Positions 1 to 27,067 of a stretch of DNA of 38,670 nucleotides are shown piece after piece; the first letter of the stretch is position 1; every line of letters starts with the position of its first letter. Origin of the DNA: a virus. The position numbers and the translations under genes are program-made. The DNA lies in the IMG/VR virus record IMGVR_UViG_3300045988_088524, positions 1 through 38,670 of that record; one strand, 5' to 3'. A model generated the notes under the pieces. The model was not told the origin of the DNA. It worked only from the letters and a program-made list of their open reading frames with translations, and made no database searches.

Positions 1-155
1 ACACAACACCCGAAGATGATAAATGTGAGTATTGGCTTGGCGAATCAAATCCCCGCTGCCTTAACACCAAAAAAGCAATCGATTTGTGTTCATGCGGCGG
101 CGATAAATCGAAATGTGACTTCTACGCACACGTAAGAAAGATGGCTAATGAGTAG
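1..155 (+). CDS. 3' end of the junction-spanning gene that starts at 38142 (dATP/dGTP diphosphohydrolase-domain, MazZ-like protein); partial only because of the linearisation
   Basis: The frame of 38142..38670 continues without a stop through the duplicated 75 nt to TAG at 153-155. The tail is Cys-rich (CEYWLGESNPRC...CSCGGDKSKCDFY). Confidence 0.7.
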   Translation, partial: TTPEDDKCEYWLGESNPRCLNTKKAIDLCSCGGDKSKCDFYAHVRKMANE

Positions 156-450
156 CCGCAATAAAAAGCTCGAATATGATGGGGTGGTGCAGCCAATACT
201 GCGCTACCTCAATTCGTTACCGAACACCAAGGCAATCAACGTTCACGGAAGCGTCTTCTGTGAGCGGGGAACGCCTGACATCATAGGGTGTATTGATGGA
301 CGTGCTATACTGTTAGAGTGCAAGAGAAGCCCCATGGAAGCCGCAGAAAAAATACAGGAATGGCGTATGGCGGAATGGCGCAGCGCGGGAGCCATTGCGG
401 CACGGGTTGATAGTGTCGACCAAGTCAAGGAACTACTAAAAGACAAATAA
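148..450 (+). CDS. VRR-NUC / PD-(D/E)XK nuclease
   Basis: 100 aa with the core GTPDIIGCIDGRAILLECK (D...E.K). The ATG overlaps the upstream stop by 8 nt. It is the last gene of the plus-strand operon. Confidence 0.75.
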   Translation: MSSRNKKLEYDGVVQPILRYLNSLPNTKAINVHGSVFCERGTPDIIGCIDGRAILLECKRSPMEAAEKIQEWRMAEWRSAGAIAARVDSVDQVKELLKDK

Positions 451-472
451 GAGCGGGGAGAAATCCCCGCTC
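451..472. terminator. Hairpin terminator between convergent plus- and minus-strand units
   Basis: GAGCGGGGA-GAAA-TCCCCGCTC forms a 9-bp GC-rich stem. On the minus strand it is followed by TTATTTGTCTTTT. Confidence 0.6.
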
Positions 473-477
473 CTGTC

Positions 478-780
478 TTATTCCACAGCGTTGACTTTCC
501 GCATGACCGCGTTGTACAATCGTGGATTTGTAGCTTGTAGTGTAGTCATAAGTTCGTCAACTATGGCGAACACCTGTACGCTGTCTTTACCTGATACCGC
601 CCGTAAGAAGTCCGTTTCTCCGTTCACATCAAGCGGTGTAGGCTGCTCGGTGGGAGCCGCGCCCGCAAGATGGTCACGAACAATGTAGAGTGGTGCGAGT
701 TTCTCCACGACGGCATATGTGGTATCGCGCTTCGATTCCAGCATCAAAATTTCGTCATTAATGACGTCAAGGTTTAGCAT
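478..780 (-). CDS. hypothetical protein (last gene of accessory cassette)
   Basis: 100 aa from ATG 780, preceded by GGAGGGGTG. The track start at 819 is an upstream alternative codon. Confidence 0.5.
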   Translation of the reverse strand: MLNLDVINDEILMLESKRDTTYAVVEKLAPLYIVRDHLAGAAPTEQPTPLDVNGETDFLRAVSGKDSVQVFAIVDELMTTLQATNPRLYNAVMRKVNAVE

Positions 781-799
781 AGTCACCCCTCCAGTGTGC

Positions 800-1369
800 T
801 CAGCACATCTTAACCCCAATGTGCTTGGACTTCTTCTTGTACTTTTCGTGCATGTCAGGCTGGCATAAGTAAATAGCCGCTAAGTCATAGTCTGTGGAAG
901 CAAGTTCAGCCTGTTTGCGGCTTGCCTTTTTTAACTCCTGGTCTACGTCCTTTACAAGCTCACCAACCTTGCAAGCTGCTGCAACCTCGCCAAGTTCCAT
1001 TAGATTTGTGTACGCTTTCTCATAGAGTTTCTTGGTTTCGGACTCCCACTCGCACCAACGGTTAAAGCCATCACGGATAGCTCTCTTCTTAGTGTTGGCG
1101 TCTACTTCCTGCCTTGTGTACCCACGCCATGATGTAGGTATTACCTCAGGATTCTTTGTTGCGTCTTCGGACAGCAATTTGTTGTAGTGGTTTACATAGT
1201 ACCTGATAAGCCCTCTGCGCTCGCTGAACTCGCACATGGCGTGATACTCGTGACAGCGCTTGAAGCCGTGCAGATTGAGAAAGTCATAATACTCCGCGAA
1301 CTGGTCATGAAGCATTATGCCCTCAATCATGTGTGCGTTTATCTCCGCAAATATCTCGGCTACGGTCAT
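800..1369 (-). CDS. ferritin-like four-helix-bundle protein (putative)
   Basis: 189 aa with RBS GGAGGAA. The N-terminal half resembles ferritin helices A/B by eye (LHGFKRCHEYHAMCEFSERRG), but the ExxH ligand pattern is not conserved (EFSE). Confidence 0.35.
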   Translation of the reverse strand: MTVAEIFAEINAHMIEGIMLHDQFAEYYDFLNLHGFKRCHEYHAMCEFSERRGLIRYYVNHYNKLLSEDATKNPEVIPTSWRGYTRQEVDANTKKRAIRDGFNRWCEWESETKKLYEKAYTNLMELGEVAAACKVGELVKDVDQELKKASRKQAELASTDYDLAAIYLCQPDMHEKYKKKSKHIGVKMC

Positions 1370-1405
1370 TTCTAAGTTCCTCCAGTATCTTTGTAAGTTG
1401 ACTCG

Positions 1406-1804
1406 TTACAGCTTTTCAACCGTAACGGCAAGGTTACTGATTACCGACGCGACGCCGCCCAGCAGTATAGACAGCATAGAACTGTCGCAGCCACAGGCAT
1501 TGCGAACTATGGCGGTTACGCCAATGTTAACAGTGTCGCCCACTGCCGCTGTCTGAGAACCTGTAGCACCGACGATAGCGACACCATCTTTCTGCGCCGT
1601 AATAGAAACTGTACCTGCAGCGGTGGGAGCTACAGTCGCTGAGACGTTAACGAGGTAATATCCCTGACCGCAGAGTGTGATTGTATTGCCATCCTGTCTG
1701 ATATTCGGACCGTATCTACGGGTAGTAACACCAACGGGTACGATGCTTCCCACTGCAACAGTGGGGCTGGCTGTGTTAGTAGTGTAGATTGCACTTTTAC
1801 TCAT
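1406..1804 (-). CDS. BclA C-terminal-domain-like (C1q/TNF-like jelly-roll) protein
   Basis: 132 aa from ATG 1804 (RBS GAAAGGAA). It is a beta-rich Val/Thr/Ala pattern, GYYLVNVSATV...VSITAQKDGVAIVG...NLAVTVEKL, resembling exosporium BclA C-terminal domains. Confidence 0.45.
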   Translation of the reverse strand: MSKSAIYTTNTASPTVAVGSIVPVGVTTRRYGPNIRQDGNTITLCGQGYYLVNVSATVAPTAAGTVSITAQKDGVAIVGATGSQTAAVGDTVNIGVTAIVRNACGCDSSMLSILLGGVASVISNLAVTVEKL

Positions 1805-1830
1805 GATAGTATTCCTTTCAATATAAATTA

Positions 1831-1854
1831 ATGGGGCGACTATTGCCGCCCCAT
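1831..1854 (-). terminator. rho-independent terminator inside accessory cassette
   Basis: Minus strand ATGGGGCG-N8-CGCCCCAT, followed by TAATTTATATT. Confidence 0.5.
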
Positions 1855-1892
1855 TGTAAGCCTCGCCAAATAGGGCGTGTGTCATGCATCAA

Positions 1893-2528
1893 TTAGATAT
1901 TGTTGCAGCCGCACGAATTACAGCCGCAGAAAGGGGAAGCTCCTGCGTTGTAGGTGTAACCCATGGGGTATCTTACGACACCACAGAAGCGGCTATCCAT
2001 CTCAAGGCTGGAAACCTTGTCGCGGAGAGCCTGAATTTCGTTGGTCTGAATGAGTGCGCGTGTAGCTTCGCCCTCCGCGTGAATTGCGGTAGTGATGTCG
2101 CAGGTCTGTCTGTCCATCTGTGCTGCAAGATTAGCAGTCGCAAGACGGTTATCGCAGCAGCACTGTGCAAGCTGAGCCTGAATGTTGTTGCCGGTCTGCA
2201 TAATGGTAGTGTTAGTACCCGCCTGAGCGAGCGCTACTTCCTTACCAAGCTGGCCGATGCCGCCCTGTATGTCGTAGCCGAGGCTGCAGATACCGTTCCC
2301 GATGTTCGTCAGACGGTCGTTGAGCTGACCGAACTGCTGACCGAACAGGATTTCCTGCTGTGAAGCGGCAGTGGCATACTGACCGTATTCGCCCTGTCTG
2401 TTACCCCAATTGTTGCCGTTAAAGCCCCAGAAGAGGAACAGGAGAATAACCCACCACGCATTGCCACCAAAGGCACCGTCAGTGTCCTTTGTAACAGCGG
2501 CGAGGTCAGAAAGTGAATAATTGTCCAT
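1893..2528 (-). CDS. membrane-anchored Q-rich coiled-coil protein with Cys clusters, function unknown
   Basis: 211 aa with a TM segment (WWVILLFLFWGF), QCCCDN mid-protein and a C-terminal FCGCNSCGCNNI. RBS GAAAGGAAAA. Confidence 0.5.
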   Translation of the reverse strand: MDNYSLSDLAAVTKDTDGAFGGNAWWVILLFLFWGFNGNNWGNRQGEYGQYATAASQQEILFGQQFGQLNDRLTNIGNGICSLGYDIQGGIGQLGKEVALAQAGTNTTIMQTGNNIQAQLAQCCCDNRLATANLAAQMDRQTCDITTAIHAEGEATRALIQTNEIQALRDKVSSLEMDSRFCGVVRYPMGYTYNAGASPFCGCNSCGCNNI

Positions 2529-2574
2529 TGCTATTTTCCTTTCGTTAATGTATTATAAAGCGTTGCGCACCGCT

Positions 2575-2796
2575 TTATTTCAGTATTCCCTGCAGGCTCT
2601 GCGCTTGCTGTTTAAGCTGCTCAAACTGAGCCTGCGACATTTTGCCGCTCTTCAAAAGTTCCTGTACGATAGCCTGCGGGTCCTTGCCCTGCAGTTGCTT
2701 CTTAAACTCGGCAAACTGCCTTAGCATCTGAATGGGGTTACTATTCGGAATCGCCGGAGTGTTTGCTTGCATTGCCTGTAGTATCGGATTTATCAT
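2575..2796 (-). CDS. small helical Q-rich protein, function unknown
   Basis: 73 aa. The ATG is preceded by GGAGGA at 8 nt. The start lies 56 nt inside the 3' end of the upstream gene, in another frame. Confidence 0.45.
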   Translation of the reverse strand: MINPILQAMQANTPAIPNSNPIQMLRQFAEFKKQLQGKDPQAIVQELLKSGKMSQAQFEQLKQQAQSLQGILK

Positions 2797-3115
2797 TTAA
2801 CATATCCTCCAATCTTTTCACACGATTCTCAAGATTGCCTACATCAACAGCGGGTGCGGGCTGATATGGTGTTATGCTATAAGGTGCAACAGTCTTATAG
2901 CCTGCGCCATCAGACTGCACCAGCCACACTATTGGTGCAGATTCGTCAAGCAGCAGTGCCGAACTATTGGGTGCTAGCTGATAAGCACGTGCCCCATTTT
3001 CACCGTTTACTTTGGTTATCTCACTTCGCATGGGAGGCTGATTCATTCCCATTGGGTTGTTGTATGCGTTGTACCCACCATAACCCGAGTACCCATACGT
3101 GTTTGTTCCGTACAT
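2741..3115 (-). CDS. protein with G/Y/N-rich N-terminus and C-terminal coiled coil, function unknown
   Basis: 124 aa, beginning MYGTNTYGYSGYGGYNAYNNPMGMNQ. RBS GAGAGGGGGA. It is the first gene downstream of the 3142-3171 promoter. Confidence 0.5.
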   Translation of the reverse strand: MYGTNTYGYSGYGGYNAYNNPMGMNQPPMRSEITKVNGENGARAYQLAPNSSALLLDESAPIVWLVQSDGAGYKTVAPYSITPYQPAPAVDVGNLENRVKRLEDMLNDKSDTTGNASKHSGDSE

Positions 3116-3141
3116 GCTAATCCCCCTCTCTTTCTATTTTT

Positions 3142-3171
3142 ATTATAACATACAGAAATACCCCTTGGCAA
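3142..3171 (-). promoter_or_regulatory. sigma-A-type promoter of the accessory cassette
   Basis: Minus strand TTGCCA (3171-3166), 18 nt, then TGT-TATAAT (3147-3142). Confidence 0.55.
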
Positions 3172-3184
3172 TGAAGCCAAGGGG
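3161..3184 (-). terminator. rho-independent terminator ending the late/lysis operon
   Basis: GCCCCTTGGC-N6-GCCAAGGGG, followed on the minus strand by TATTTCTGTATGTT. Confidence 0.65.
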
Positions 3185-3200
3185 CAACTTTCGTGCGTAT

Positions 3201-3401
3201 TTATTTGAGATGTTTAAACAGTCGTTCCTCCGACTTATAGACGACATTTTTAGTTTGGCGAACGGAAAGCCCAAACTCTTCCGCAAGTGGCTCGTAACAG
3301 ATACCGTCAATTAGCCTACGTTTGAGTATCTTGCGGTCACGTTCACTTTTAATCCACTCGTCAACTAGCGTAGACAACTCAGAGTTCGGTAAGTCAATCA
3401 T
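3201..3401 (-). CDS. sigma-70 region-4-like HTH protein
   Basis: 66 aa. ERDRKILKRRLIDGICYEPLAEEFGLSVRQTKNVVYKSEERL matches the region-4 HTH pattern. Confidence 0.5.
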   Translation of the reverse strand: MIDLPNSELSTLVDEWIKSERDRKILKRRLIDGICYEPLAEEFGLSVRQTKNVVYKSEERLFKHLK

Positions 3402-3476
3402 GGTGATTTTCTTCGCCTCGTTCCCTTAGATTTCCCGTTTTTCTTGGTTCGAGTTCGTGTGTTGGTTTTTGTTACT

Positions 3477-3755
3477 TTAATCCGTGCCGCCATTAGTTAT
3501 GTCACCATCATTCCCGACGAAGTTCGCATTACTGTTTCCGTCTGCCTGTATTTCCACAGTGGATGTTTCACTGGACGAGTAATCGTACTGACACCAAGCC
3601 CACAGCCACAGGGCGTTACTGGCGAACACTAACGCAACCGAAATGATAAGAGCGATGATGAGCCTTTTCATCGTTCGTTCCGAGCGAGCAATTGTACTTT
3701 CAAACACAACATATGGGACGTTATCCATATTATTTGACTTCCTTTCTAGTGTCAT
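3477..3755 (-). CDS. single-pass membrane protein of the lysis cassette
   Basis: 92 aa with TM segment LIIALIISVALVFASNALWLWAW. There is an ATGA overlap with the upstream stop. An alternative start is at 3728. Confidence 0.45.
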   Translation of the reverse strand: MTLERKSNNMDNVPYVVFESTIARSERTMKRLIIALIISVALVFASNALWLWAWCQYDYSSSETSTVEIQADGNSNANFVGNDGDITNGGTD

Positions 3756-3988
3756 GTCTTTTCCAAATCATCAATCCTGTGATTGGCAACGGCGATTTTT
3801 TCGTCAAGGACAGCTTCATGCTGTTCGAGCTTATAAACTCGCTCAACAACGCCGTTATGTTTATCAACTTTTTTCTCGAGCTGTTCAATGCGGTACAGCG
3901 TTTTGTTGTGGCCGGTGAGTGCCCCGAAAAAAGAGCCGCCAAGAGAGCCAATCAAAGCGATTAATGCGAGTATGATAGCTTCTGACAT
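3752..3988 (-). CDS. xhlA: XhlA-family lysis-associated membrane protein
   Basis: 78 aa with an N-terminal TM segment plus a coiled coil (RIEQLEKKVDKHNGVVERVYKLEQ). Confidence 0.6.
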   Translation of the reverse strand: MSEAIILALIALIGSLGGSFFGALTGHNKTLYRIEQLEKKVDKHNGVVERVYKLEQHEAVLDEKIAVANHRIDDLEKT

Positions 3989-3993
3989 TACCT

Positions 3994-4206
3994 TTATTCC
4001 TCCGATTTTTCGTTTTCTTTGGTTGCTGCCTTGTCAACAGCACCCTCGGACAGTATGTATACCGCCAGAACGCCCACCGAGGAAATGACCCCCGCCACAC
4101 GTTCCTGACTCTCCGCATTCTGCCCAAACGCCATCATTACGGCAATAACAACGCCCGAAACTGCCGCCCAAAACTTGCGGCTCGAAAGCTTGCGTTTCCA
4201 GTCCAT
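3994..4206 (-). CDS. holin (two TM segments)
   Basis: 70 aa with two hydrophobic segments and a charged C-terminal tail. It lies directly downstream of the endolysin. Confidence 0.6.
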   Translation of the reverse strand: MDWKRKLSSRKFWAAVSGVVIAVMMAFGQNAESQERVAGVISSVGVLAVYILSEGAVDKAATKENEKSEE

Positions 4207-4209
4207 ATG

Positions 4210-4953
4210 TTACACCTCCTTGCTCCGCCGAACAGCCGTCATACCCATTTCCGAGCATTTTTTCATAATCCCCGCTGCCTGTTCGGCGGTTAAATCGTCC
4301 GCCACTGCCGACACTGAGAAACGCTGTTTATCAACCCCGGAAAAGCCGTTTAAACAGCGTTTTTTAATTGTAGTCGGATAATCATAATAGGAGATATTTG
4401 TATCAACATCTCCCGAAATTCCCGGAACAGAACCTTTCCACGAATTTTGCCACATACCCACATTTCGGCAGGCAGTAGGCTTGATATTTTCGACCCTTGC
4501 CGACCATGCCGCATAGCGTTTGGTTATTTCGGGCGATAAGTTTGACGCAAAAAAGCTGTCGAAACTGTACACGCCTGCATAATATCCTGCGGCTTCCAAG
4601 CGTCCGCAAAAAGCCTTAACGAGGTCATCGCAATTACCTCTAAGGACGTGCGAACGCTCCTCGATATCGAACCAGACGGGGAACTCCAGCTGTTTATCTT
4701 TAATGAGCTTCAGACAAAATTCCGCTTCTTTTTCGGCATCCGCTGCGGAATCCGCATAGCTATAATGATATGCTCCGACAGGCAGCCCCACACGCTTACA
4801 CTCGCTGTAATTGCGCTCGAACTGCTCATCTACCTGACTTGCATGCTCCCTGCCGAAACCACATCTAAGGATTGCGAAATCGACCTTGCCGCTTGCTTTG
4901 ACCTTATCCCAGTCAATGTTTCCATTATGCTGAGAAACATCTATTCCTCTCAT
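4210..4953 (-). CDS. endolysin, glycoside hydrolase family 25 muramidase
   Basis: The N-terminus MRGIDVSQHNGNIDWDKVKASGKVDFAILRCGFG is the typical GH25 signature. Confidence 0.85.
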   Translation of the reverse strand: MRGIDVSQHNGNIDWDKVKASGKVDFAILRCGFGREHASQVDEQFERNYSECKRVGLPVGAYHYSYADSAADAEKEAEFCLKLIKDKQLEFPVWFDIEERSHVLRGNCDDLVKAFCGRLEAAGYYAGVYSFDSFFASNLSPEITKRYAAWSARVENIKPTACRNVGMWQNSWKGSVPGISGDVDTNISYYDYPTTIKKRCLNGFSGVDKQRFSVSAVADDLTAEQAAGIMKKCSEMGMTAVRRSKEV

Positions 4954-5683: not shown

Positions 5684-6982
5684 CTATTCGTATTTAATCG
5701 GCACTGCCCCGAAGTTGGTTAACTGCTTTTCGGCATCATAACTACATGCGAACGATGCCGTTGTGTCGTCCGTGTAGGTGATAGTAATGTTTACTATATC
5801 ATCATCGGCGTTCTTCTTGGCGGTAATTGAAGCTACATCAGCCTTACTTGTAGCCACCATATCCATGCCCGCGTCAACCTTACTTGTGGCCGCTACACTA
5901 GAAACGGATCGCTTTTTCGTTCCCAGGTCAATTGACGTGTATCTTTCATGCGCCACGTCAAACACGGTCTTGATGCATCGCTGTGTCACTGCCGACTCAC
6001 CATGACCCAAGTTGATGCTTATCGTGTCGCCAAGTTCGATATGGTCTACGTCGGTTAAATGTGCGTACTCCACGGTGCTACCCCTCGGTACGACCTTTAC
6101 ACTACATCTATTGGCGCTATTTCCGATGTCCAGGTTGGCTCTGACGAACTCGTGAATACATTCGTCTAAGTCGCTCGGCTGAGGCTTTTCGGAGAATTTA
6201 CTGGAACAGTCCAGAATGCATGGCTTGAAATAAAGGTCATTTACACTGGTGTTGGCGTACAGGGGCTTAAACACGGGGTCGGTGTAAACTATAGTTTGTG
6301 CACCGTCCCCTGCGTTAGGGTCTGCGCCTTTCCAAAAGGCACACACGCATGTGTATTGGCCGCTCGTGTCCCATTCCATTGTAGCAGTCTGGATATTCTC
6401 GCCATAGCTGACGGAAACGCCCCTATCACTGCCGCGACGGTCTAAGAGGGTTATTGCGTTGTTCGTAAACACCCAATCCCCACCCCACGTGGAAGCCATT
6501 CTATTTCTGACGGACTTTATCGCAGTGGGAGTCGGCACACTCCACTTATACACGGAGTTGTTGGTCAGCTCTGACACGAAAGTAAACCCCGGAACGTTAC
6601 CCTGTATGCTTGAATTGAGGTGTGCTATCATAGTGTCAACACTGCCCTCAGTGTCTTCGTAGTCCGTGTTGGGAAAGCAAACGTATCTGTCAACGGCATA
6701 AGTGGTATGCTCCGCCCAAATCGTAACCACTCCGCTAATAGGCTTCGATATCTTGTAGACCCTGAACAGCTGCGGGGTTTCGCAATAAGGGTTCGGCTTG
6801 GCTTTCACCCAACACGCCTCATGAATGTCTGAGTAGTGCACTCCAACTACGGGGTATTGCATCACCAACTCAAAAGACGTGTTCAGTTCTTCAGTTACAC
6901 TACACGTTATGACGTCGCGCAGAATGCCGACACCATTACCGCTGAAATCCGTTGCATCGCTGCTGTACAATATGGGAAACAT
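5684..6982 (-). CDS. tail-associated protein Tal (prophage tail endopeptidase-type N-terminal domain)
   Basis: Begins MFPILYSSDATDFSGNGVGILRD. RBS GGAGG. TAATG overlap with Dit. Confidence 0.75.
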   Translation of the reverse strand: MFPILYSSDATDFSGNGVGILRDVITCSVTEELNTSFELVMQYPVVGVHYSDIHEACWVKAKPNPYCETPQLFRVYKISKPISGVVTIWAEHTTYAVDRYVCFPNTDYEDTEGSVDTMIAHLNSSIQGNVPGFTFVSELTNNSVYKWSVPTPTAIKSVRNRMASTWGGDWVFTNNAITLLDRRGSDRGVSVSYGENIQTATMEWDTSGQYTCVCAFWKGADPNAGDGAQTIVYTDPVFKPLYANTSVNDLYFKPCILDCSSKFSEKPQPSDLDECIHEFVRANLDIGNSANRCSVKVVPRGSTVEYAHLTDVDHIELGDTISINLGHGESAVTQRCIKTVFDVAHERYTSIDLGTKKRSVSSVAATSKVDAGMDMVATSKADVASITAKKNADDDIVNITITYTDDTTASFACSYDAEKQLTNFGAVPIKYE

Positions 6983-7731
6983 TACAAGTACCTCCAATTT
7001 GGTTCAATGGACAGCACGTTGATGTCGCCTGACCAAGAAATGGCGTTTTCACCAGGAGATAGCGTGGGGAACTTAGTCCAATTTACTAAGGTGTTAAGTC
7101 CACCAGTTGCGCCCGACACGTCCAACCTGTCACTGTCAACAGTAGCAATCACAGGCTGTTTGGGGCTTCGTATCTCAAAGGTTTCGCCGTTCACAACGAG
7201 CGTACCCGCGCCACGAATGTTCACGGAAATTCTTGGGTATGCCACGAAAGGCGTAGGGTTGGTGAGGGTGCTGCTGTTCTTGGGAGTCTGTGAAGTTTGC
7301 CGTAACGCCCGCCGTGTGGTCTGCGTGGTCTGTACAGACTGTACAGTGTCAGCAAATCTGAATGGAGAACAGTCGAATACTATTGTGAATGGATTTAGCA
7401 AATTCAAGCGGGTCTGCAGTTCTGCCGCACTTGTGATGACTGCTTTGTAGTGGAATCCGCTTGTAATGCCAAGTTTACGTTCGCCAAATGTCCCGAGCAG
7501 GAACTCGGAAACGTTAGCCATGGCTGTGGTTACGTCATCTCCCAGACAGTAGCAGGTCGCTGTTGCTGTGCGGGAATCGTAGGCATCGTTGAATATGTGC
7601 ACATTTCCACTTCGCCCCGCTATCTTTACCGTTGTGATTGACGGCACGAGTGGGGAGAGTTCTATAGGCTTCTGCAAAATGACACCCTTTGACTTTGCCG
7701 AAACCCCGTCAAGTGTGAAATCAAGCTCCAT
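6982..7731 (-). CDS. distal tail protein Dit
   Basis: 249 aa, beginning MELDFTLDGVSAKSKGVIL...KIAGRSG, located after the tape measure. RBS GGGAGGTGG. Confidence 0.75.
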   Translation of the reverse strand: MELDFTLDGVSAKSKGVILQKPIELSPLVPSITTVKIAGRSGNVHIFNDAYDSRTATATCYCLGDDVTTAMANVSEFLLGTFGERKLGITSGFHYKAVITSAAELQTRLNLLNPFTIVFDCSPFRFADTVQSVQTTQTTRRALRQTSQTPKNSSTLTNPTPFVAYPRISVNIRGAGTLVVNGETFEIRSPKQPVIATVDSDRLDVSGATGGLNTLVNWTKFPTLSPGENAISWSGDINVLSIEPNWRYL

Positions 7732-10033
7732 AGCCCGCCACCTCCCTATCGGTTATAAACTGTATTCGTTCGGAAATTGCCGCCGCGAGTTCGTTGAAGT
7801 CCTGATATTGAACCCCATTGATGTTGATAACGATGCCGCCGAAACCTGACCCACCAAGGCCGCCCGACTTGGCGGGCTTAACTTCAGAAGTGGAGAAGTC
7901 CAGACCCTCGTTGATGCTCTTGGCAACCCCCGGAATCGTATCATCCCAACCCTCGCCAAGACCGAGAGCCAGAAACTCGCCCATTTCGGCAAACATCCTT
8001 GAGGGGCTGTGGATACCGAAGAAGTCCCTCAGTGTTTCCCTCAGCTTCTCGCCGCCCTCCTTGAACTTCTCCTTAACGCTTTCGACTCCGTTTTTGAAGC
8101 CCTCGCCAATGCCGTTCATCAACTGCTTGCCTATGTCACCCCAATCGACGGATAAAAATGCATCCTTGATTGCTGAGATGATTTCGGGGATTGCACCCAC
8201 TATCATGACGATTGCCTTGGGGATGCCCTCAATAATTGCCGTGAACAGGTTAACGCCTATGTCTATCATGAGCGAAATGTTGTTCATGAACGTTTCAATA
8301 CTCGCGGTTATAATTTCGGGCAGGGCTTCGACAACGTTCATAATTATTGTGGGCAGGTCAGCGATAAGTGACGAGAACAGTTCAACGCCCATCTGCATCA
8401 ATTCAGGAAAAGACTCCGCCAACGCTCCCGTAATCGAGGCTATTATCTCGGGGATTGCCGACACGAGATTTGTGATTATCGCAGGCAGGTCTTCAATAAT
8501 CGCCGTGAATAAGTCAATGCCCGCCTGAATTAGCTCAGATGTCAGTCCAAGTATAGCATTTACTATAGCGGAAATCAGCTCAGGAATTACCGCCACTATA
8601 CCACTAATTATGTCAGGCAAAGCACCAACTAGCGATGTGAGCAATGTAATTCCCGCGTTAACAATCAGCGGAATGCTTGTAACTACAGCGTCTATGACTG
8701 CGTTTATGATGGTCGGTATCATCGCCACTATAACAGGAATGTTTTCAACCACTGCCGTTATGACGTTCGTGATTATTATTGGAACAACTGAAATCAGTGT
8801 CGGAATCATTTCAATTATGCCTACTGCCAGATTGGTTACCAAGTCCAAAACTGCAGTGAGCAGGTTTGACAAAACATCGGGGCCAGTCAGAACTTCGATA
8901 ATACCAGTAACAACCTCGGCTAATGTGTTCATAAGTTCCCCAGAATTGTCGGAAATACCCCGTGTTAACTGGATAATTATTGTCGCGGCTGACTTCGCCA
9001 AATCGGGTAACTGCTTCATTGCGGTGTTTAGCACACTAGGTATTACTTTCACTAAATCCGTCGTTAGCGTAGTAACACTGTTAACCAAAATCGGGAAAAC
9101 GTCACTAAGTAGCTGCTCCAAGTGTGGCGGGATAACACTCGCTAAACTGGTTATTCCATCGAGTATTCGCGGGATAGTTTCACCGATTCGGGGAATAATG
9201 TTCTCGCCCACAGTTACGACACTCTCGACCAAGTTATCAATCAGCACACCGAGGTCTTGTGATGGGTCTGCCAGACCCGTCATTAAATTACCCCATGCCG
9301 ATTGCATGGAGGAAATGCTGCCCTGAATGGTGGTGCTTGCTTCTTTAGCGGTTGTTCCAGTTATGCCCATTTCTGTCTGTACTGCATGGATAGCTTCGAC
9401 TATTTTCGCATAACCAACTTCTGCCAACTGTGCGCCAATAGTCTGCGTATCGCTCAGGTCAAGCATAGCATCACCGAGTACACCAGAGTCGTTGACGAGT
9501 CTAGCCATTTCCGAAGCAGTACCGCCGTAGCCGAGCTTCAGGTTGTCGAGCATGGTGTAGTTCTGCTTGGCGAAACCCTGATAGGCATTCTGTATGGACT
9601 CTATGCTTGAACCCATTTTATTGGCGTTGTCCGCCATGTCGATTACGGCTTGGTTCGCCGCTTCAGCAGCAGCAGCTGTATCACCGTCAAGGCTCTGAAG
9701 CAATGACGCTGAGAAGCTGGTCACTGTTTCCATGTAGGCGTTTGCAGACATGCCCGCCGATTTATACGCAGCATCAGCATAACCCTGCACAACACCGGCA
9801 GAGTTCTTAAACAGGGTTTCCACGCCACCCACAAGCTGCTCATACTCTGCGTACTCGTCAATAGCACTCTTAGTTAGTGCTGTAACCCCCGCAGCAGCAG
9901 CAGTTACAGCCGCCCCGCCAACCTTTGCGGCGGTCGCAAGACCTGTCTTCAGCTTTCCAGACAAGCCGCTTATGCCGCTTTCGGCTTCAGATGTATCCGC
10001 ACCTATGCGTACAAACAGATCAAGCAGGTTCAA
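7721..10033 (-). CDS. tail tape measure protein
   Basis: 770 aa. It has a TP901-type N-terminal core, a long hydrophobic helical repeat region and a TTG start with RBS AAGAGGTGA. Confidence 0.9.
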   Translation of the reverse strand: MNLLDLFVRIGADTSEAESGISGLSGKLKTGLATAAKVGGAAVTAAAAGVTALTKSAIDEYAEYEQLVGGVETLFKNSAGVVQGYADAAYKSAGMSANAYMETVTSFSASLLQSLDGDTAAAAEAANQAVIDMADNANKMGSSIESIQNAYQGFAKQNYTMLDNLKLGYGGTASEMARLVNDSGVLGDAMLDLSDTQTIGAQLAEVGYAKIVEAIHAVQTEMGITGTTAKEASTTIQGSISSMQSAWGNLMTGLADPSQDLGVLIDNLVESVVTVGENIIPRIGETIPRILDGITSLASVIPPHLEQLLSDVFPILVNSVTTLTTDLVKVIPSVLNTAMKQLPDLAKSAATIIIQLTRGISDNSGELMNTLAEVVTGIIEVLTGPDVLSNLLTAVLDLVTNLAVGIIEMIPTLISVVPIIITNVITAVVENIPVIVAMIPTIINAVIDAVVTSIPLIVNAGITLLTSLVGALPDIISGIVAVIPELISAIVNAILGLTSELIQAGIDLFTAIIEDLPAIITNLVSAIPEIIASITGALAESFPELMQMGVELFSSLIADLPTIIMNVVEALPEIITASIETFMNNISLMIDIGVNLFTAIIEGIPKAIVMIVGAIPEIISAIKDAFLSVDWGDIGKQLMNGIGEGFKNGVESVKEKFKEGGEKLRETLRDFFGIHSPSRMFAEMGEFLALGLGEGWDDTIPGVAKSINEGLDFSTSEVKPAKSGGLGGSGFGGIVININGVQYQDFNELAAAISERIQFITDREVAGYGA
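8129..8656 (-). repeat. four tandem 44-aa (132-nt) repeats inside the tape measure
   Basis: Units start at aa 460, 504, 548 and 592 (AGITLL.., AGIDLF.., MGVELF.., IGVNLF..). Each contains LP.II...V.AIPEII. Confidence 0.7.
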
Positions 10034-10706
10034 ACGGTATCACCTCTTATTCTTGCCAAGTTCGTTTTAAAATCGCTCACAATTTCTTCTGGTGTGCGTT
10101 TTTCCTCGGGCTTTGAATTTATTAAGTCGCAATAGCGCACTGAAATATACCCGCCACCACCGATTTTTGCTGTGTTTTCGGTCAACACCCGCAAGCATTC
10201 AGCCAAGTACAGATTGAGGACCGATTGCTCACTTTGCCGCTTTAAAATCGTCGGTATTGCGGCAATCAGCCCCCTTGCACTCATTCTTCTCGGCATACCC
10301 AGCAAAACGGAGGTTACTTCACTTCCTCCGATACGCACGATTTGAAAAAATCCACAAAATCCTTGTCCTGCACTATCTTGCGGATATTCTGCATCACGAC
10401 CATAACATTGACGTGAGCAACTTCGTCGGTTGTAACAGGTCTGGTGCTGAGTGCTACAAGAACGCCGAAAACGTCAACCTTGTGCTTTTTAAGAATTATC
10501 GGCACAAGATTTGTGAGTTTCTCCATGCCAAAAACAAACTGCTGTGCTTTGGTCTTCGTTTCACCGTCATTTAACTTTGTTTTCAGTTCAGATGTGAGCT
10601 GCTCATCAGTCACAATGTTGGCAAGGTATACACTCACTTCACATAGTACGTCAATTGCCTCATTCGCTGTCAGTTCTGAAATCTTACGAACTTCAAACTT
10701 TTCCAC
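10030..10706 (-). CDS. tail assembly chaperone G-T fusion made by -1 frameshift
   Basis: The -1 frame at the slippery site reads ..FFQIVRIGGSEVTS.., which is continuous with ORF 10030..10338. Confidence 0.65.
10314..10706 (-). CDS. tail assembly chaperone (gpG-like)
   Basis: 130 aa, between the major tail and tape measure genes. GTG start preceded by AGGGGGT. Confidence 0.7.
   Translation of the reverse strand: MEKFEVRKISELTANEAIDVLCEVSVYLANIVTDEQLTSELKTKLNDGETKTKAQQFVFGMEKLTNLVPIILKKHKVDVFGVLVALSTRPVTTDEVAHVNVMVVMQNIRKIVQDKDFVDFFKSCVSEEVK
10344..10350 (-). other. -1 programmed frameshift slippery heptamer T_TTT_TTC
   Basis: The zero-frame reads GAT TTT TTC AAA, 27 nt before the gpG-like stop. 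Confidence 0.65.
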
Positions 10707-10727
10707 TGCCGCATACCCCCTAAATGT

Positions 10728-11531
10728 TTATTCCCAGATTGCATAAAGTGTGGTGTCCTCAGTAATCTTAAACGTTGCGCCCGCGTTGTAATCGGTACCA
10801 CTACCATTTGCCTGCGTGTTCCACTTTGAGAACGACTTTGTATCGGGAGGAGTAAAAGCATTGGACAGCGTAGTAACAACTGCACCGTCTGCATAAGGTG
10901 AATTACTGTCAGTCATTGTACCAGTACCACCGTTTTCATTGTACGTCACAGTATACGTAGCTGCTGATGTACCTGCGGCGGAATAAAACGTCATAGGCAT
11001 CACACTCTGTGCACTGATGGAAACGTGACCCGTCAGCTCGACGGATAACTGGCCCTTGCCATTCTTAGTGGTCTTGAGCGAGAAACCACCAGTAGAAAGT
11101 GCATTTTTCAGCTGAACGGCAACCATACCGCCACTCGCTGTGTCGCCTACCCACCAAATATCGCTGAAGTCGCTCTGTGCGAGGTCCTTACGGGGGGTCA
11201 CCTTTGTAGCGTCCGTACTATCTATGTCTGCCGCACCCAGCGCCAGCTTAATCGCTTCGGGGGTCATTCCGAGCGACGTGAACGACATCTTACAGTCCCA
11301 TCCATCAAGGTGTTTCAGTTCCTTCATGTTATTGGGGCAGTTATCCACGTCCTCACCCAGGTCGCTATAAGTCGGTACGCACGATGCGTTTATACCGCCA
11401 GTAGTGGGGCAGATGATATCCTCGTCCTTGGGCGCAGTCGCTGTAGCGGGGTCAAATGTTTTCAGAAGCACACCCGCATCAAGCTGTAAACCGTCAAATG
11501 TGTCTTTGGGAATGACCGTAAATTTACCCAT
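10728..11531 (-). CDS. major tail protein with C-terminal Listeria-Bacteroides (InlB B-repeat / Flg_new) domain
   Basis: Position, plus the C-terminal YTVTYNENGGTGTM...FSKWNTQANGSGTDY...TLYAIWE. Confidence 0.75.
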   Translation of the reverse strand: MGKFTVIPKDTFDGLQLDAGVLLKTFDPATATAPKDEDIICPTTGGINASCVPTYSDLGEDVDNCPNNMKELKHLDGWDCKMSFTSLGMTPEAIKLALGAADIDSTDATKVTPRKDLAQSDFSDIWWVGDTASGGMVAVQLKNALSTGGFSLKTTKNGKGQLSVELTGHVSISAQSVMPMTFYSAAGTSAATYTVTYNENGGTGTMTDSNSPYADGAVVTTLSNAFTPPDTKSFSKWNTQANGSGTDYNAGATFKITEDTTLYAIWE

Positions 11532-11547
11532 TATAACCAATCCTTTC

Positions 11548-11928
11548 TTAGTTTTTAGTCAAATATTCAGCAGTAATATTTATCAACTTACGTCGAATTA
11601 AATCATCTGTTTCATCTGTTTCATCTCGCATGGACGTGGCGAACGGCTGACCACGTTTTATCCATATTTTACCACCGCTACAGTCTATAACCACACCACC
11701 ATATCCAATGGCAGCGGAAATTTCCTCGGTCTTCGCATTTATGGCTGTCCACGAAGACGCGCGGTACCACAGCGACGCCGTCAACGCTGTATCGCCACCG
11801 CCAAAACTGTTAGTCGTTACCGAGTATGTTAGATACGGGAACGTGGCATCTTCGGGGACGGAATACTCTTGGTATGCCGTAAGTCCAAACCCACTGAAAA
11901 ATTTGTGCAACGCAGCAGCCTTAGTCAT
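11548..11928 (-). CDS. tail terminator / tail completion protein (putative)
   Basis: 126 aa, immediately upstream of the major tail protein gene. Confidence 0.5.
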   Translation of the reverse strand: MTKAAALHKFFSGFGLTAYQEYSVPEDATFPYLTYSVTTNSFGGGDTALTASLWYRASSWTAINAKTEEISAAIGYGGVVIDCSGGKIWIKRGQPFATSMRDETDETDDLIRRKLINITAEYLTKN

Positions 11929-26619: not shown

Positions 26620-26649
26620 TTGACAAGGCATAACTTGTCGTGTTATAAT
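26620..26649 (+). promoter_or_regulatory. promoter
   Basis: TTGACA, 18 nt, TGT-TATAAT. Confidence 0.6.
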
Positions 26650-26671: not shown

Positions 26672-27067
26672 ATGAAGGACTTGTTAACCACATGTGCCAC
26701 ATGCGGCATAAGTTTTTGGTGCGAAAGAGGGACCATTTACAGAGCAACAGTTAAAGGTTGTGTTAAGCGGTTCTGCTCTTATATATGTTGGATGAAATAT
26801 AAGGAGGAAAAACACATGGCAAAAATAATAATCAAAAACAGACTTAAAGAATATCGCGACCGCGCAAGGCTCACCTTGCAGGAGGTCAGCATCTTAACAG
26901 GTTTCGACATTACGACCATCAGCCGCCACGAATCGGGACAGCGTGGGCTGTCCGATGAAGCTATGGAGAAGTACGCTGCGCTCTATAAGGTAAAGACACA
27001 CGAACTGCTTGATTTAAGAGGTGGCGATGATGAACAGTGTACTAACGCAGGCGAATGGATATATTGA
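26672..27067 (+). CDS. XRE-family HTH regulator with N-terminal Cys-rich extension (nested in-frame start at 26816)
   Basis: The HTH is LTLQEVSILTGFDITTISRHESGQRG. Both ATG 26672 and ATG 26816 have strong GGAGGA sites. Confidence 0.7.
   Translation: MKDLLTTCATCGISFWCERGTIYRATVKGCVKRFCSYICWMKYKEEKHMAKIIIKNRLKEYRDRARLTLQEVSILTGFDITTISRHESGQRGLSDEAMEKYAALYKVKTHELLDLRGGDDEQCTNAGEWIY

Follow-up and report, generated by a model that had tools for sequence, protein, structure and literature searches.

A six-gene cassette with its own promoter beside the lysis genes of a phage, and its conserved core in phages of Clostridia

Do six genes that lie just beyond the lysis genes of a phage serve its virion or its lysis, or do they make up an accessory unit of their own? 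This question was raised by the IMG/VR virus record IMGVR_UViG_3300045988_088524, whose complete stretch of 38,670 nucleotides (nt) is referred to here as the window. Six co-oriented genes (g1 to g6; 478–3115) are found on its minus strand, between a small gene, g0, and a gene for a VRR-NUC-like endonuclease. A preliminary description had presented them as an autonomously transcribed, moron-like cassette, and the gene set, product compositions, promoter and three hairpins that it listed were all recovered, at or within a few bases of where it had placed them. The account that we favor, with about even confidence, is that this cassette is a self-contained transcription unit with a mobile accessory module of gut Clostridia phages, and not virion or lysis machinery. 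Such a unit would run from promoter P3171 through g1-g2-g3, a two-hairpin attenuator and g4-g5-g6 to a bidirectional terminator (Table 1). The comparison drew on about 150 loci, namely 73 from species-representative genomes, which were searched iteratively with profile hidden Markov models for the cassette families, and 80 closer relatives from IMG/VR. Counts over these relatives come from phylogenetically related sequences and are indicative only.

The start of the unit is marked by a strong terminator, T1, and a promoter overlapping it, and both were confirmed here. The −35 hexamer of the cassette promoter sits in the 3' arm of the T1 hairpin. The arrangement is conserved in L075, a relative with flanking genes ~77–83% identical to the window at the nucleotide level, whereas the T1/promoter stretch is ~97% identical. 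Within the T1 stem L075 shows only two differences, which together make a paired G:C to A:U change and convert TTGCCA to TTGTCA. The hairpin that follows g3 (T2; −20.0 kcal/mol, z −4.7 versus shuffles) and the one that ends the cassette (T3), both described earlier, were also recovered; T2 and T3 are hairpins in L075 as well, with T3 there of a different sequence in the same place.

A promoter scan at a loose threshold gave 9 promoter-like sites in the window versus 8.2 in shuffled sequences. At 11/12 or more consensus positions, seven sites were found (plus strand 21021, 23103, 26620 and 32243; minus strand 20688, 14522 and 3171) versus 0.58 expected. All seven contained the TG element, the spacer was 18 nt in six and 17 nt at 20688, and they had flanking bases in common (aATTGACA...gTGTGtTATAAT). 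Because of this excess and these common bases, the cassette promoter is not a chance match. It is one of the phage's own standard promoters; its 18-nt spacer is one base over the textbook 17 but is the norm among the promoters of this phage. The cassette promoter and terminators are real and under selection. The seven promoters seem to stand at the start of every major early and late transcription unit, and as they are near-identical across early and late units, promoter sequence alone makes no early/late distinction. Since the cassette promoter is of the same class as the six others, nothing in it points to expression apart from the lytic programme.

Table 1. Positions of the cassette genes, their upstream neighbor and the associated transcription signals in the window.
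Feature	Position	Strand	Description
T3, bidirectional terminator	449–474	both	−24.5 kcal/mol, z −6.7; common to the convergent VRR-NUC-like gene
g6	478–780	−	100 amino acids; small helical protein; frequent distal member
g5	800–1369	−	189 amino acids; weakly ferritin-like, helical; variable cargo
g4	1406–1804	−	132 amino acids; stand-alone BclA C-terminal domain homologue (TNF/C1q-like)
Two-hairpin RNA element including T2	1824–1880	−	CGCC-N5-6-GGCG hairpin, AGG, then T2 (1830–1855)
g3	1893–2528	−	211 amino acids; phrog_16490 match
Candidate internal −10, perfect TATAAT	2552–2557	−	23 nt upstream of the g3 start; read from the sequence
g2	2575–2796	−	73 amino acids, 15 Gln; phrog_22984 match, 5e-20, full length
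g1	2741–3115	−	124 amino acids; phrog_21718 match at 1e-7
Cassette promoter TTGCCA-18(TG)-TATAAT	3142–3171	−	11/12 consensus positions plus TG
T1, terminator	3159–3186	−	11-bp GC-rich stem; −23.5 kcal/mol, z −5.9 versus shuffles; ends late/lysis operon after g0
g0	3201–3401	−	66 amino acids; stand-alone sigma-70 region-4/LuxR-GerE-type helix-turn-helix; upstream neighbor outside the cassette

Of 60 distinct loci from the relatives, 18 have a terminator in the 200 nt that precede g1, versus 5.5% of control windows. A full two-hexamer sigma-70 promoter upstream of g1 was not enriched (3/60 versus 3.7%; 2/66 versus 3.1%). A −10-like hexamer was present 17–60 nt upstream of the start of g1 in 51% and of g3 in 46% of distinct relatives, and such a hexamer was found in 14% for g4, in 15% of random windows and in 34% of AT-rich control windows.

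A step in expression would come between g3 and g4. The 56-nt g3/g4 element of the window-type subfamily consists of a 4-bp hairpin (CGCC-N5-6-GGCG), (A/G)GG, a short spacer and a GC-rich terminator hairpin, whose U-rich tail continues into the ribosome-binding site of g4. In a consensus fold of 30 sequences, 7 of 12 pairs showed compensatory changes; the small hairpin was intact in all 30, with five CG to GC double changes, and several compensatory pairs occurred in the large hairpin. A covariance model found one match per locus, at the g3/g4 junction only, in the window and 0.94 Mb of loci, and when Rfam 15 was searched over positions 400–3500, nothing scored better than E 3 and the minus strand at 1824–1880 had no match. 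Some hairpin lies between g3 and g4 in 25 of 54 loci, and in distant relatives the g3-g4 gap is just 3–16 nt, without the RNA element. The GCC..GGC..GG bases of the element are invariant, a conservation that exceeds the need of a plain terminator, and these invariant bases suggest that something binds it. We read the element as a probable attenuator, or a site where 3' ends form, dividing g1-g3 from g4-g6. Two other roles were considered and rejected: an antiterminator acting through alternative pairing of the hairpin pair, as no co-variation links the GGCC-type variants to the terminator arm, and a tiny open reading frame (MGRQ) within the element, which is not conserved.

The cassette genes keep company across a wide range of phages. 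Among the 73 genome loci, g3 was found in 72, g1 in 62, g4 in 53 and g2 in 46, and the order was always g1-g2-g3-g4, down to ~25% g3 identity. Every complete locus among the 80 IMG/VR relatives contained g1-g4, and what followed g4 varied (g5, g6, a 102-amino-acid protein, or none). The distal genes were recovered less often, g5 in 7/73 and ~15/80 loci and g6 in 15/73 loci and in the cultured Butyrivibrio fibrisolvens phage Ceridwen. The g1 family comprises 4566 homologues, the g3 family 4571 at 90% clustering (839 clusters at 50% identity) and the g4 family at least 8000. Named hosts were overwhelmingly Oscillospiraceae, Lachnospiraceae and other Clostridia. Genes g1-g4 are an ancient, deeply conserved syntenic core, and g5 and g6 are swappable cargo.

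Whether the cassette travels as a unit was a check suggested at the outset, and over the 73 + 80 loci it does so across unrelated phage backbones. Three phages (L005, L006 and L008) have the cassette in common but differ in tail, holin and amidase, and L075 has the cassette and replication arm in common with the window and carries different lysis genes, for a holin_4_1 protein and an NlpC/P60 lysin. In phage Ceridwen the order is endolysin, g0, terminator, g1-g2-g3-g4 and g6. The cultured C. perfringens phages HMD-PC1 and 17DYC carry g1-g2-g3 and, ~1 kb further on, g6-like and g5-like genes; the trio lies 3' of an antirepressor gene and ahead of Gam and recombinase genes. A search of a literature library found no description of this module. 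A possible link to the F-ENA endospore appendages was dropped, as that work concerns DUF4183 proteins and not this family.

The cassette usually follows the lysis genes, where late genes meet early genes or lysis genes meet the integrase gene, and it can face either way with respect to the lysis operon. On the opposite strand, ~2 kb beyond g3, temperate relatives carry a gene for a tyrosine integrase (16/73 and 32/80 loci), and the attachment-site core, inside a tRNA-Thr gene, abuts the cassette. In 16 of the 80 IMG/VR relatives the cassette is inverted (L106-L113, L118, L120, L133, L138, L140-L143 and L148), with g0, gm1 (a gene for a small membrane protein) and an amidase gene converging on its 3' end and divergent minus-strand genes upstream of g1. 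Since the cassette is convergent in these relatives, its transcription cannot in general depend on read-through from the late operon. That outcome, transcription by read-through only, had been named beforehand as one that would speak against an autonomous cassette.

The module can be absent, and it can outlive its prophage. On a 655-kb bacterial contig (L007), a 2.6-kb segment at 9251–11912 consists of the upstream terminator and the six-gene cassette, 99.5–99.8% identical to phage copies. The segment ends inside a tRNA-Thr(CGT) gene (attR), an insertion sequence element with an rve transposase lies on its other side, and no other phage gene was found within 10 kb of the cassette. Given the attR end, the phage-identical segment and the absence of other phage genes, this is a prophage remnant that has kept the cassette only. 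Four phages resemble the window at the end of their replication arm, and three of them carry the cassette between the VRR-NUC and lysis genes. In L077, where DCD is 77% and VRR-NUC 56% identical to the window, the endolysin gene is one 116-amino-acid open reading frame away from the VRR-NUC gene, and no match to any cassette family was found in 18.4 of 41.6 kb of the contig. On that portion, the cassette looks dispensable in this related phage. Within the window the cassette genes have a GC content of 0.47–0.54 versus 0.497 ± 0.019 for the other genes, a third-position GC content within ~2 standard deviations, and a relative synonymous codon usage correlation of 0.70 versus a baseline of 0.82. 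Base composition and codon use are thus ordinary for this genome, not foreign.

Turning to the products, the suggested absence of any standard virion or lysis role was borne out: none of the six proteins matched a virion or lysis family in Pfam or PHROG. Searches of Pfam, NCBIfam and PADLOC with the six gave nothing significant; in PHROG, g1, g2, g3 and g5 fell in families of unknown function and g4 and g6 in none, with no head, tail, connector or lysis assignment. By these searches g1, g2, g3 and g6 match no named family. Remote homology and structure prediction, also suggested beforehand, gave a BclA-C/TNF assignment for g4 and a weak ferritin assignment for g5, and no meaningful match in the Protein Data Bank (PDB) for g1, g3 or g6.

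The g1 protein has 10 Tyr, 13 Gly and 12 Asn, mostly in the first 30 residues. This N-terminus is disordered and Gly/Tyr/Asn-rich, and is Gln/Pro/Tyr-rich in relatives. The AlphaFold2 model contains a small alpha/beta domain at ~31–90 (predicted local distance difference test score, pLDDT, ~95) and a C-terminal helix at 92–110. There was no Pfam match in 49 family members, no PDB sequence match by profile, and a fold search of the PDB gave a best E of 0.47, its best, insignificant matches being tailspike N-terminal domains. In a viral fold library the structural neighbors were uncharacterized homologues from contigs labelled sipho-, myo- and podovirus. The g2 protein is small, Gln-rich and helical; its gene has a strong Shine-Dalgarno sequence and overlaps g1 out of frame by 56 nt (2741–2796); the overlap is 56–59 nt across the close subfamily and 4–20 nt in distant relatives. 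Through this overlap g2 is probably translationally coupled to g1.

The g3 protein contains 10 Cys, including a CCC run at 123–125, a hydrophobic stretch at 24–36 and heptad-like segments. Across its family an acidic N-terminus is conserved; a hydrophobic segment bordered by Gly comes next, then a helical region that differs in length between members, and the tail is Cys-rich, of the type NNGCGCG. The motif LQSQLAQCCCDNR has two invariant Cys, and C124 and C125 are invariant in a 46-member alignment. The 150 listed representatives of the 839 clusters are all ~190–270 amino acids long, and the helical region varies from 195 to 367 amino acids among relatives. Fusions were sought as a clue to partners, and none were seen among these 150. 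No Pfam match was found in a member-by-member search and no PDB sequence match by profile. In all six cassette proteins, reading of the N-termini and a hydropathy scan revealed no apparent signal peptide.

For g4, homologues support a start at the ATG at 1804 and not at 1885. The proposed likeness to the BclA C-terminal domain and C1q found support in family, profile and fold searches. Pfam BclA_C was matched by 15 of 45 family members (best 3.1e-8), and the window protein itself had no Pfam match at E ≤ 1; the family profile against the PDB placed BclA in the top four positions (E 0.02–0.05). The AlphaFold2 model is all-beta (pLDDT 59; predicted template modeling score 0.54), and a Foldseek search of the PDB with it returned TNF ligands, C1q, ExsF/ExsFA and Pgp3 (E 5e-4 to 5e-3, query TM-scores up to 0.72), with a cyanophage tail protein also among the fold matches. 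The protein is predicted to adopt a jelly-roll fold of the TNF/C1q type, an assignment limited by the moderate confidence of the model. The sequence is without GXX repeats and starts ~10 residues before the first predicted strand.

The ferritin likeness of g5 held weakly. Ferritins made up almost all of the top ~20 PDB matches of the family profile, at E 0.006–0.1 and aligned over helices A-B, and in that alignment the ligand positions are partly substituted relative to ferritin (Glu to His in helix A; His to Glu or Arg in helix B). No Pfam match was found for g5, and for g6 no Pfam, PHROG or meaningful PDB profile match.

Upstream of the cassette, g0 had been described as a sigma-region-4-like regulator, and its family agrees: 16 of 29 members match Sigma70_r4 or Sigma70_r4_2 (best 1.8e-8) and 5 match GerE. 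The window copy scores E 0.04 in Pfam and E 1e-3 for NCBIfam sigma70-ECF, and g0 lies upstream of g1 in 31 of 73 loci. In L075 (~9125–9330, corresponding to 3201–3401 of the window) an in-frame TGA replaces TGG in g0, and the terminator-promoter just 3' is almost unchanged; g0 may be dispensable there, or the stop may be an assembly error. The neighboring gm1 (3477–3755, minus strand) encodes a 92-amino-acid single-pass membrane protein without a family match. It accompanies g0 in many relatives, those with inverted cassettes included, and is part of a block common to L075 that breaks at ~3722, before the holins.

How the core might work can be put forward tentatively, as a possible mechanism that we would not yet call probable. 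The N-terminus of g3 would sit in the cytoplasmic membrane, and the protein would extend from it as a long helical stalk, probably a trimer, that the invariant Cys-Cys motif locks together. The g4 protein, of the trimer-type BclA-C/TNF-like fold, would associate with this stalk, and g1 and g2, translationally coupled, could serve as adaptors or assembly partners. The hairpin 3' of g3 would set a ratio of high g1-g3 to low g4-g6 expression. The resulting envelope complex, an anchored stalk with its partner at an attenuated ratio, might modify the cell envelope during infection or lysogeny, with superinfection exclusion or an altered surface as possible results. That the products form a complex at all is inferred from the strict synteny, the g1/g2 coupling and the expression step after g3.

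Several observations weigh against this account and against the accessory unit from which it starts. Deep conservation in apparently virulent phages, the window and Ceridwen among them, would also fit a role in the lytic cycle, and Ceridwen was observed in the lytic cycle only (PMC7372960). The sequences of the relatives are phylogenetically related, so the statistics on them overstate independence, and in L077 the cassette could sit elsewhere on the contig, of which 18.4 of 41.6 kb were covered. The g4 model is of low confidence, and no cassette protein matched a known defense or exclusion family in PADLOC-DB (none better than E 0.02, and nothing consistent). Membrane anchoring of g3 is uncertain, because only 13 residues are strongly hydrophobic and the 19-residue Kyte-Doolittle mean is 1.43. 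As no signal peptide was apparent in any of the six proteins, an extracellular complex would be hard to build.

The g4 homology also leads to a different proposal, that the products become part of the surface of the forespore or spore, as exosporium and coat proteins do, and change the spore properties of the lysogen. Here a BclA/ExsF-like trimer of g4 would be joined by g3 as a layer or stalk cross-linked through its Cys residues, by g1 as a Tyr-rich protein open to cross-linking and by g5 as a ferritin-like coat enzyme, roles that we consider improbable, as we do the proposal as a whole. BclA_C matches in the g4 family, the leading place of BclA in the PDB profile search and the ExsF/ExsFA fold matches point this way, as do the 10 Cys of g3, the 10 Tyr and low-complexity N-terminus of g1 and the ferritin likeness of g5. 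The apparent lack of signal peptides would fit assembly in the mother-cell cytoplasm, the neighbor g0 is a helix-turn-helix protein of the GerE/sigma-region-4 type, and the hosts are mostly Clostridia. The spore link was speculative when first raised and stays so. The Ceridwen host, Butyrivibrio fibrisolvens, is not known to sporulate, and a complete copy in that phage weakens the link. The promoter, moreover, is of the housekeeping sigma-70 type, the same as the phage's six others, and not of a mother-cell type; g4 is without the collagen-like region and the N-terminal targeting domain of BclA, and the TNF/C1q fold is also common in phage fibers and other contexts. Stable sporulating lysogens are not expected, as the window shows no integrase, and the complete g0-g1-g2-g3-g4-g6 arrangement occurs in a phage seen in the lytic cycle only (PMC7372960). 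A SpoIIID-like regulator, which the preliminary description had listed beside the sigma-like one, was not located; the four small open reading frames tried gave just a Cro/C1-type helix-turn-helix protein at 26672–27067.

The same fold is at home in virions, and g3 and g4 could be the shaft and TNF-like knob of a side or head fiber encoded outside the structural block, with g1 and g2 as chaperones or adaptors. Fibers repeatedly combine a trimeric shaft and a TNF-like knob, the g4 fold matches include a cyanophage tail protein and Pgp3, and the best though insignificant PDB matches of g1 were tailspike N-terminal domains. The helical region of g3 varies in length (195 to 367 amino acids) as fiber shafts do, and the module mostly lies on the same strand as, and 3' of, the late genes. 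Yet the lysis cassette and a strong terminator lie between the module and the structural genes, and the module is inverted relative to the late operon in 16/80 relatives, is apparently absent in L077 and is kept alone in the bacterial chromosome of L007. Homologues of g1 occur in contigs labelled with three tail morphotypes and are not tied to one virion type, and in the C. perfringens phages the module sits among early-type genes, with the antirepressor before it and Gam and recombinase after it. The hydrophobic N-terminal segment of g3 would be odd for a soluble fiber, and PHROG places none of the proteins in a structural category. A virion fiber or decoration is, in our judgment, just as improbable as a spore-surface role.

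Could the cassette instead be the tail of the late operon, an accessory to lysis that aids envelope breakdown or progeny release and is expressed mainly by read-through or antitermination? The module is directly 3' of the holin, endolysin and small membrane protein genes in most loci, and g3 has a segment like a membrane anchor. In many relatives just 20–30 nt lie between the upstream terminator and the ribosome-binding site of g1, and a full sigma-70 promoter was not detected. Against this, the window has a near-consensus, conserved promoter, and the convergent arrangement in 16/80 relatives excludes read-through as a general mode. The cassette also stays constant while lysins and holins switch among GH25, amidase and NlpC/P60 types, was not found in L077 (in the part covered), and persists without lysis genes in the L007 remnant. 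We therefore rate a lysis accessory as very unlikely.

The least probable of the alternatives that we considered is an intracellular, membrane-tethered scaffold for phage replication or assembly, with g1 and g2 as partners and g4-g6 as auxiliaries, which would resemble phi29 p16.7, a protein with an N-terminal membrane anchor plus a coiled coil, in the N-terminal anchor and long helical region of g3 (with a charge distribution suggesting a largely cytoplasmic bulk), and which would suit partners apparently without signal peptides, carriage by apparently virulent phages, proximity to recombination and replication genes in the C. perfringens phages and, in the lineage of the window, co-variation of the cassette with the replication arm and not with lysis or tail genes; but no sequence or fold similarity to any replication-organizing protein was found, the cassette is apparently absent from L077 despite the same replication arm and is the sole prophage remnant in L007, and neither the TNF-like g4 nor the Cys-rich tail would have an obvious role.

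The genome around the cassette provides the setting for the favored account of a self-contained accessory unit. The window has the look of a complete siphovirus genome in circularly permuted form, and positions 1–147 and 38046–38670 align to adjoining parts of one L075 gene region, which makes a complete circular or circularly permuted genome probable. The record was probably opened inside a gene between the deaminase-like gene and the VRR-NUC gene; in L075, a gene with a dGTP-diphosphohydrolase N-domain follows the deaminase-like gene, ahead of the VRR-NUC gene. The late arm is on the minus strand, with the small terminase (20061–20615), portal, head, tape measure (7721–10033) and tail endopeptidase (5684–6997) genes. 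Upstream of the cassette on the same strand are the lysis genes, comprising a GH25 endolysin (4210–4953; Pfam E 6e-27) and an XhlA-like protein (3752–3988); the latter and small membrane proteins span 3477–4206. The plus-strand arm (~20.8–38.7 kb) encodes a helicase, primase-polymerase, methyltransferase, exonuclease, Sak4-like protein, single-stranded DNA-binding protein, family-A DNA polymerase, PurZ-like protein and dUTPase/dCTP-deaminase-like protein. It crosses the window junction, and its last gene is the VRR-NUC-like endonuclease (148–450, plus strand; phrog_93 endonuclease match). No integrase was found in the window when one was looked for.

Two further features of the plus-strand arm were noted. 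A gene set typical of 2-aminoadenine (Z-base) genomes is located at 36100–38670, wrapping to 1–450, and includes a PurZ-like adenylosuccinate-synthetase homologue (36485–37615; phrog_1211, E 2e-69) and the dUTPase/dCTP-deaminase-like gene (37605–38045). The Cro/C1-type helix-turn-helix protein at 26672–27067 (plus strand; 131 amino acids; HTH_31, E 4e-10) is encoded directly 3' of the promoter at 26620. It is the sole repressor-like protein that we came across, and the phage otherwise shows no lysogeny genes.

Together the four core families number thousands of members in gut metagenomes of humans and animals, and their genes occupy the site at which Clostridia prophages classically carry lysogenic-conversion genes; yet g1, g2 and g3 belong to no named family, and neither a solved structure of a relative nor a described function exists for them. 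Should the module change the envelope, spore surface or phage susceptibility of abundant gut Firmicutes, it would represent a widespread determinant of strain fitness that phages carry. At its boldest, and we think this unlikely, it would be a previously undescribed phage system of gut Clostridia in which a Cys-knotted trimeric g3 stalk, a BclA/TNF-like g4 head, the partners g1 and g2 and a new RNA attenuator remodel the host envelope or spore surface, or form a new class of superinfection exclusion, and which could be domesticated after prophage decay. The module is directly testable because cultured phages carry it, Ceridwen with g0-g4 and g6 and HMD-PC1 and 17DYC with g1-g3 together with g5 and g6. 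The terminator-promoter junction and the two-hairpin element are clean candidates for studying expression control within operons.

Comparison with known systems places the parts of the cassette as follows. With ferritin/Dps, the g5 family shares a profile alignment over helices A-B, including the YFD..GL.GF segment; its E-values are marginal, it has no Pfam match, its ferroxidase-ligand positions are partly substituted, and the gene is optional. With the BclA C-terminal domain (PF18573) and ExsFA/BxpB of the Bacillus exosporium, g4 shares profile-level homology and a predicted TNF-like jelly roll, and the size of its family (132–150 amino acids) is close to that of stand-alone ExsFA. In contrast to these proteins, g4 has neither collagen-like repeats nor an N-terminal exosporium-targeting motif, it is phage-encoded beside a putatively membrane-anchored coiled-coil protein, and it has a conserved Cys-Cys near the C-terminal strands.

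Shaft-knob fibers are a second point of reference. The tail-needle knob of the Sf6 type combines a trimeric coiled-coil shaft with a TNF-like knob, and, as in Chlamydia Pgp3, which was among the fold matches, the cassette pairs an elongated helical protein with a TNF-fold domain. In the cassette, however, two distinct polypeptides would make up the shaft and the knob, and the N-terminus of the former carries a hydrophobic, putative anchor. Among phages, membrane-anchored proteins for superinfection exclusion include Sie2009 of Lactococcus, Ltp of S. thermophilus and Imm and Sp of T4. They are like the cassette in having a small, putatively membrane-anchored product encoded as a separate unit near the prophage end, useful to temperate and virulent phages alike and of possible benefit to the host, but the cassette has no sequence similarity to them and is a four-protein module, not a single protein.

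The cassette can also be compared with phage morons and with the lysogenic-conversion cassettes that Firmicutes prophages carry where lysin gene and attachment site meet, a concept reportedly associated with Juhala, Hendrix and colleagues and with Brussow, Canchaya and Hardt. Like them, the cassette has its own promoter and terminators, follows the lysis genes and adjoins attP/attR and integrase in temperate relatives, and it shows presence/absence polymorphism, occurrence on unrelated backbones and persistence after prophage decay. This much of the moron reading in the preliminary description stands: its own promoter and terminators, its mobility as a unit, and the lack of a cassette in the covered part of L077. 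The cassette differs from morons in its deeply conserved core, four genes with homologues in the thousands where a moron would be one gene of sporadic occurrence, and only g5 and g6 are cargo-like; its composition is not foreign, and it also occurs in integrase-less, apparently virulent phages. In this phage its promoter does not differ in type from those that drive the regular early and late units, and the cassette has a conserved internal element, read as an RNA attenuator. By layout and position the cassette is of the moron/lysogenic-conversion type, with a core whose conservation and spread go well beyond what the word moron implies.

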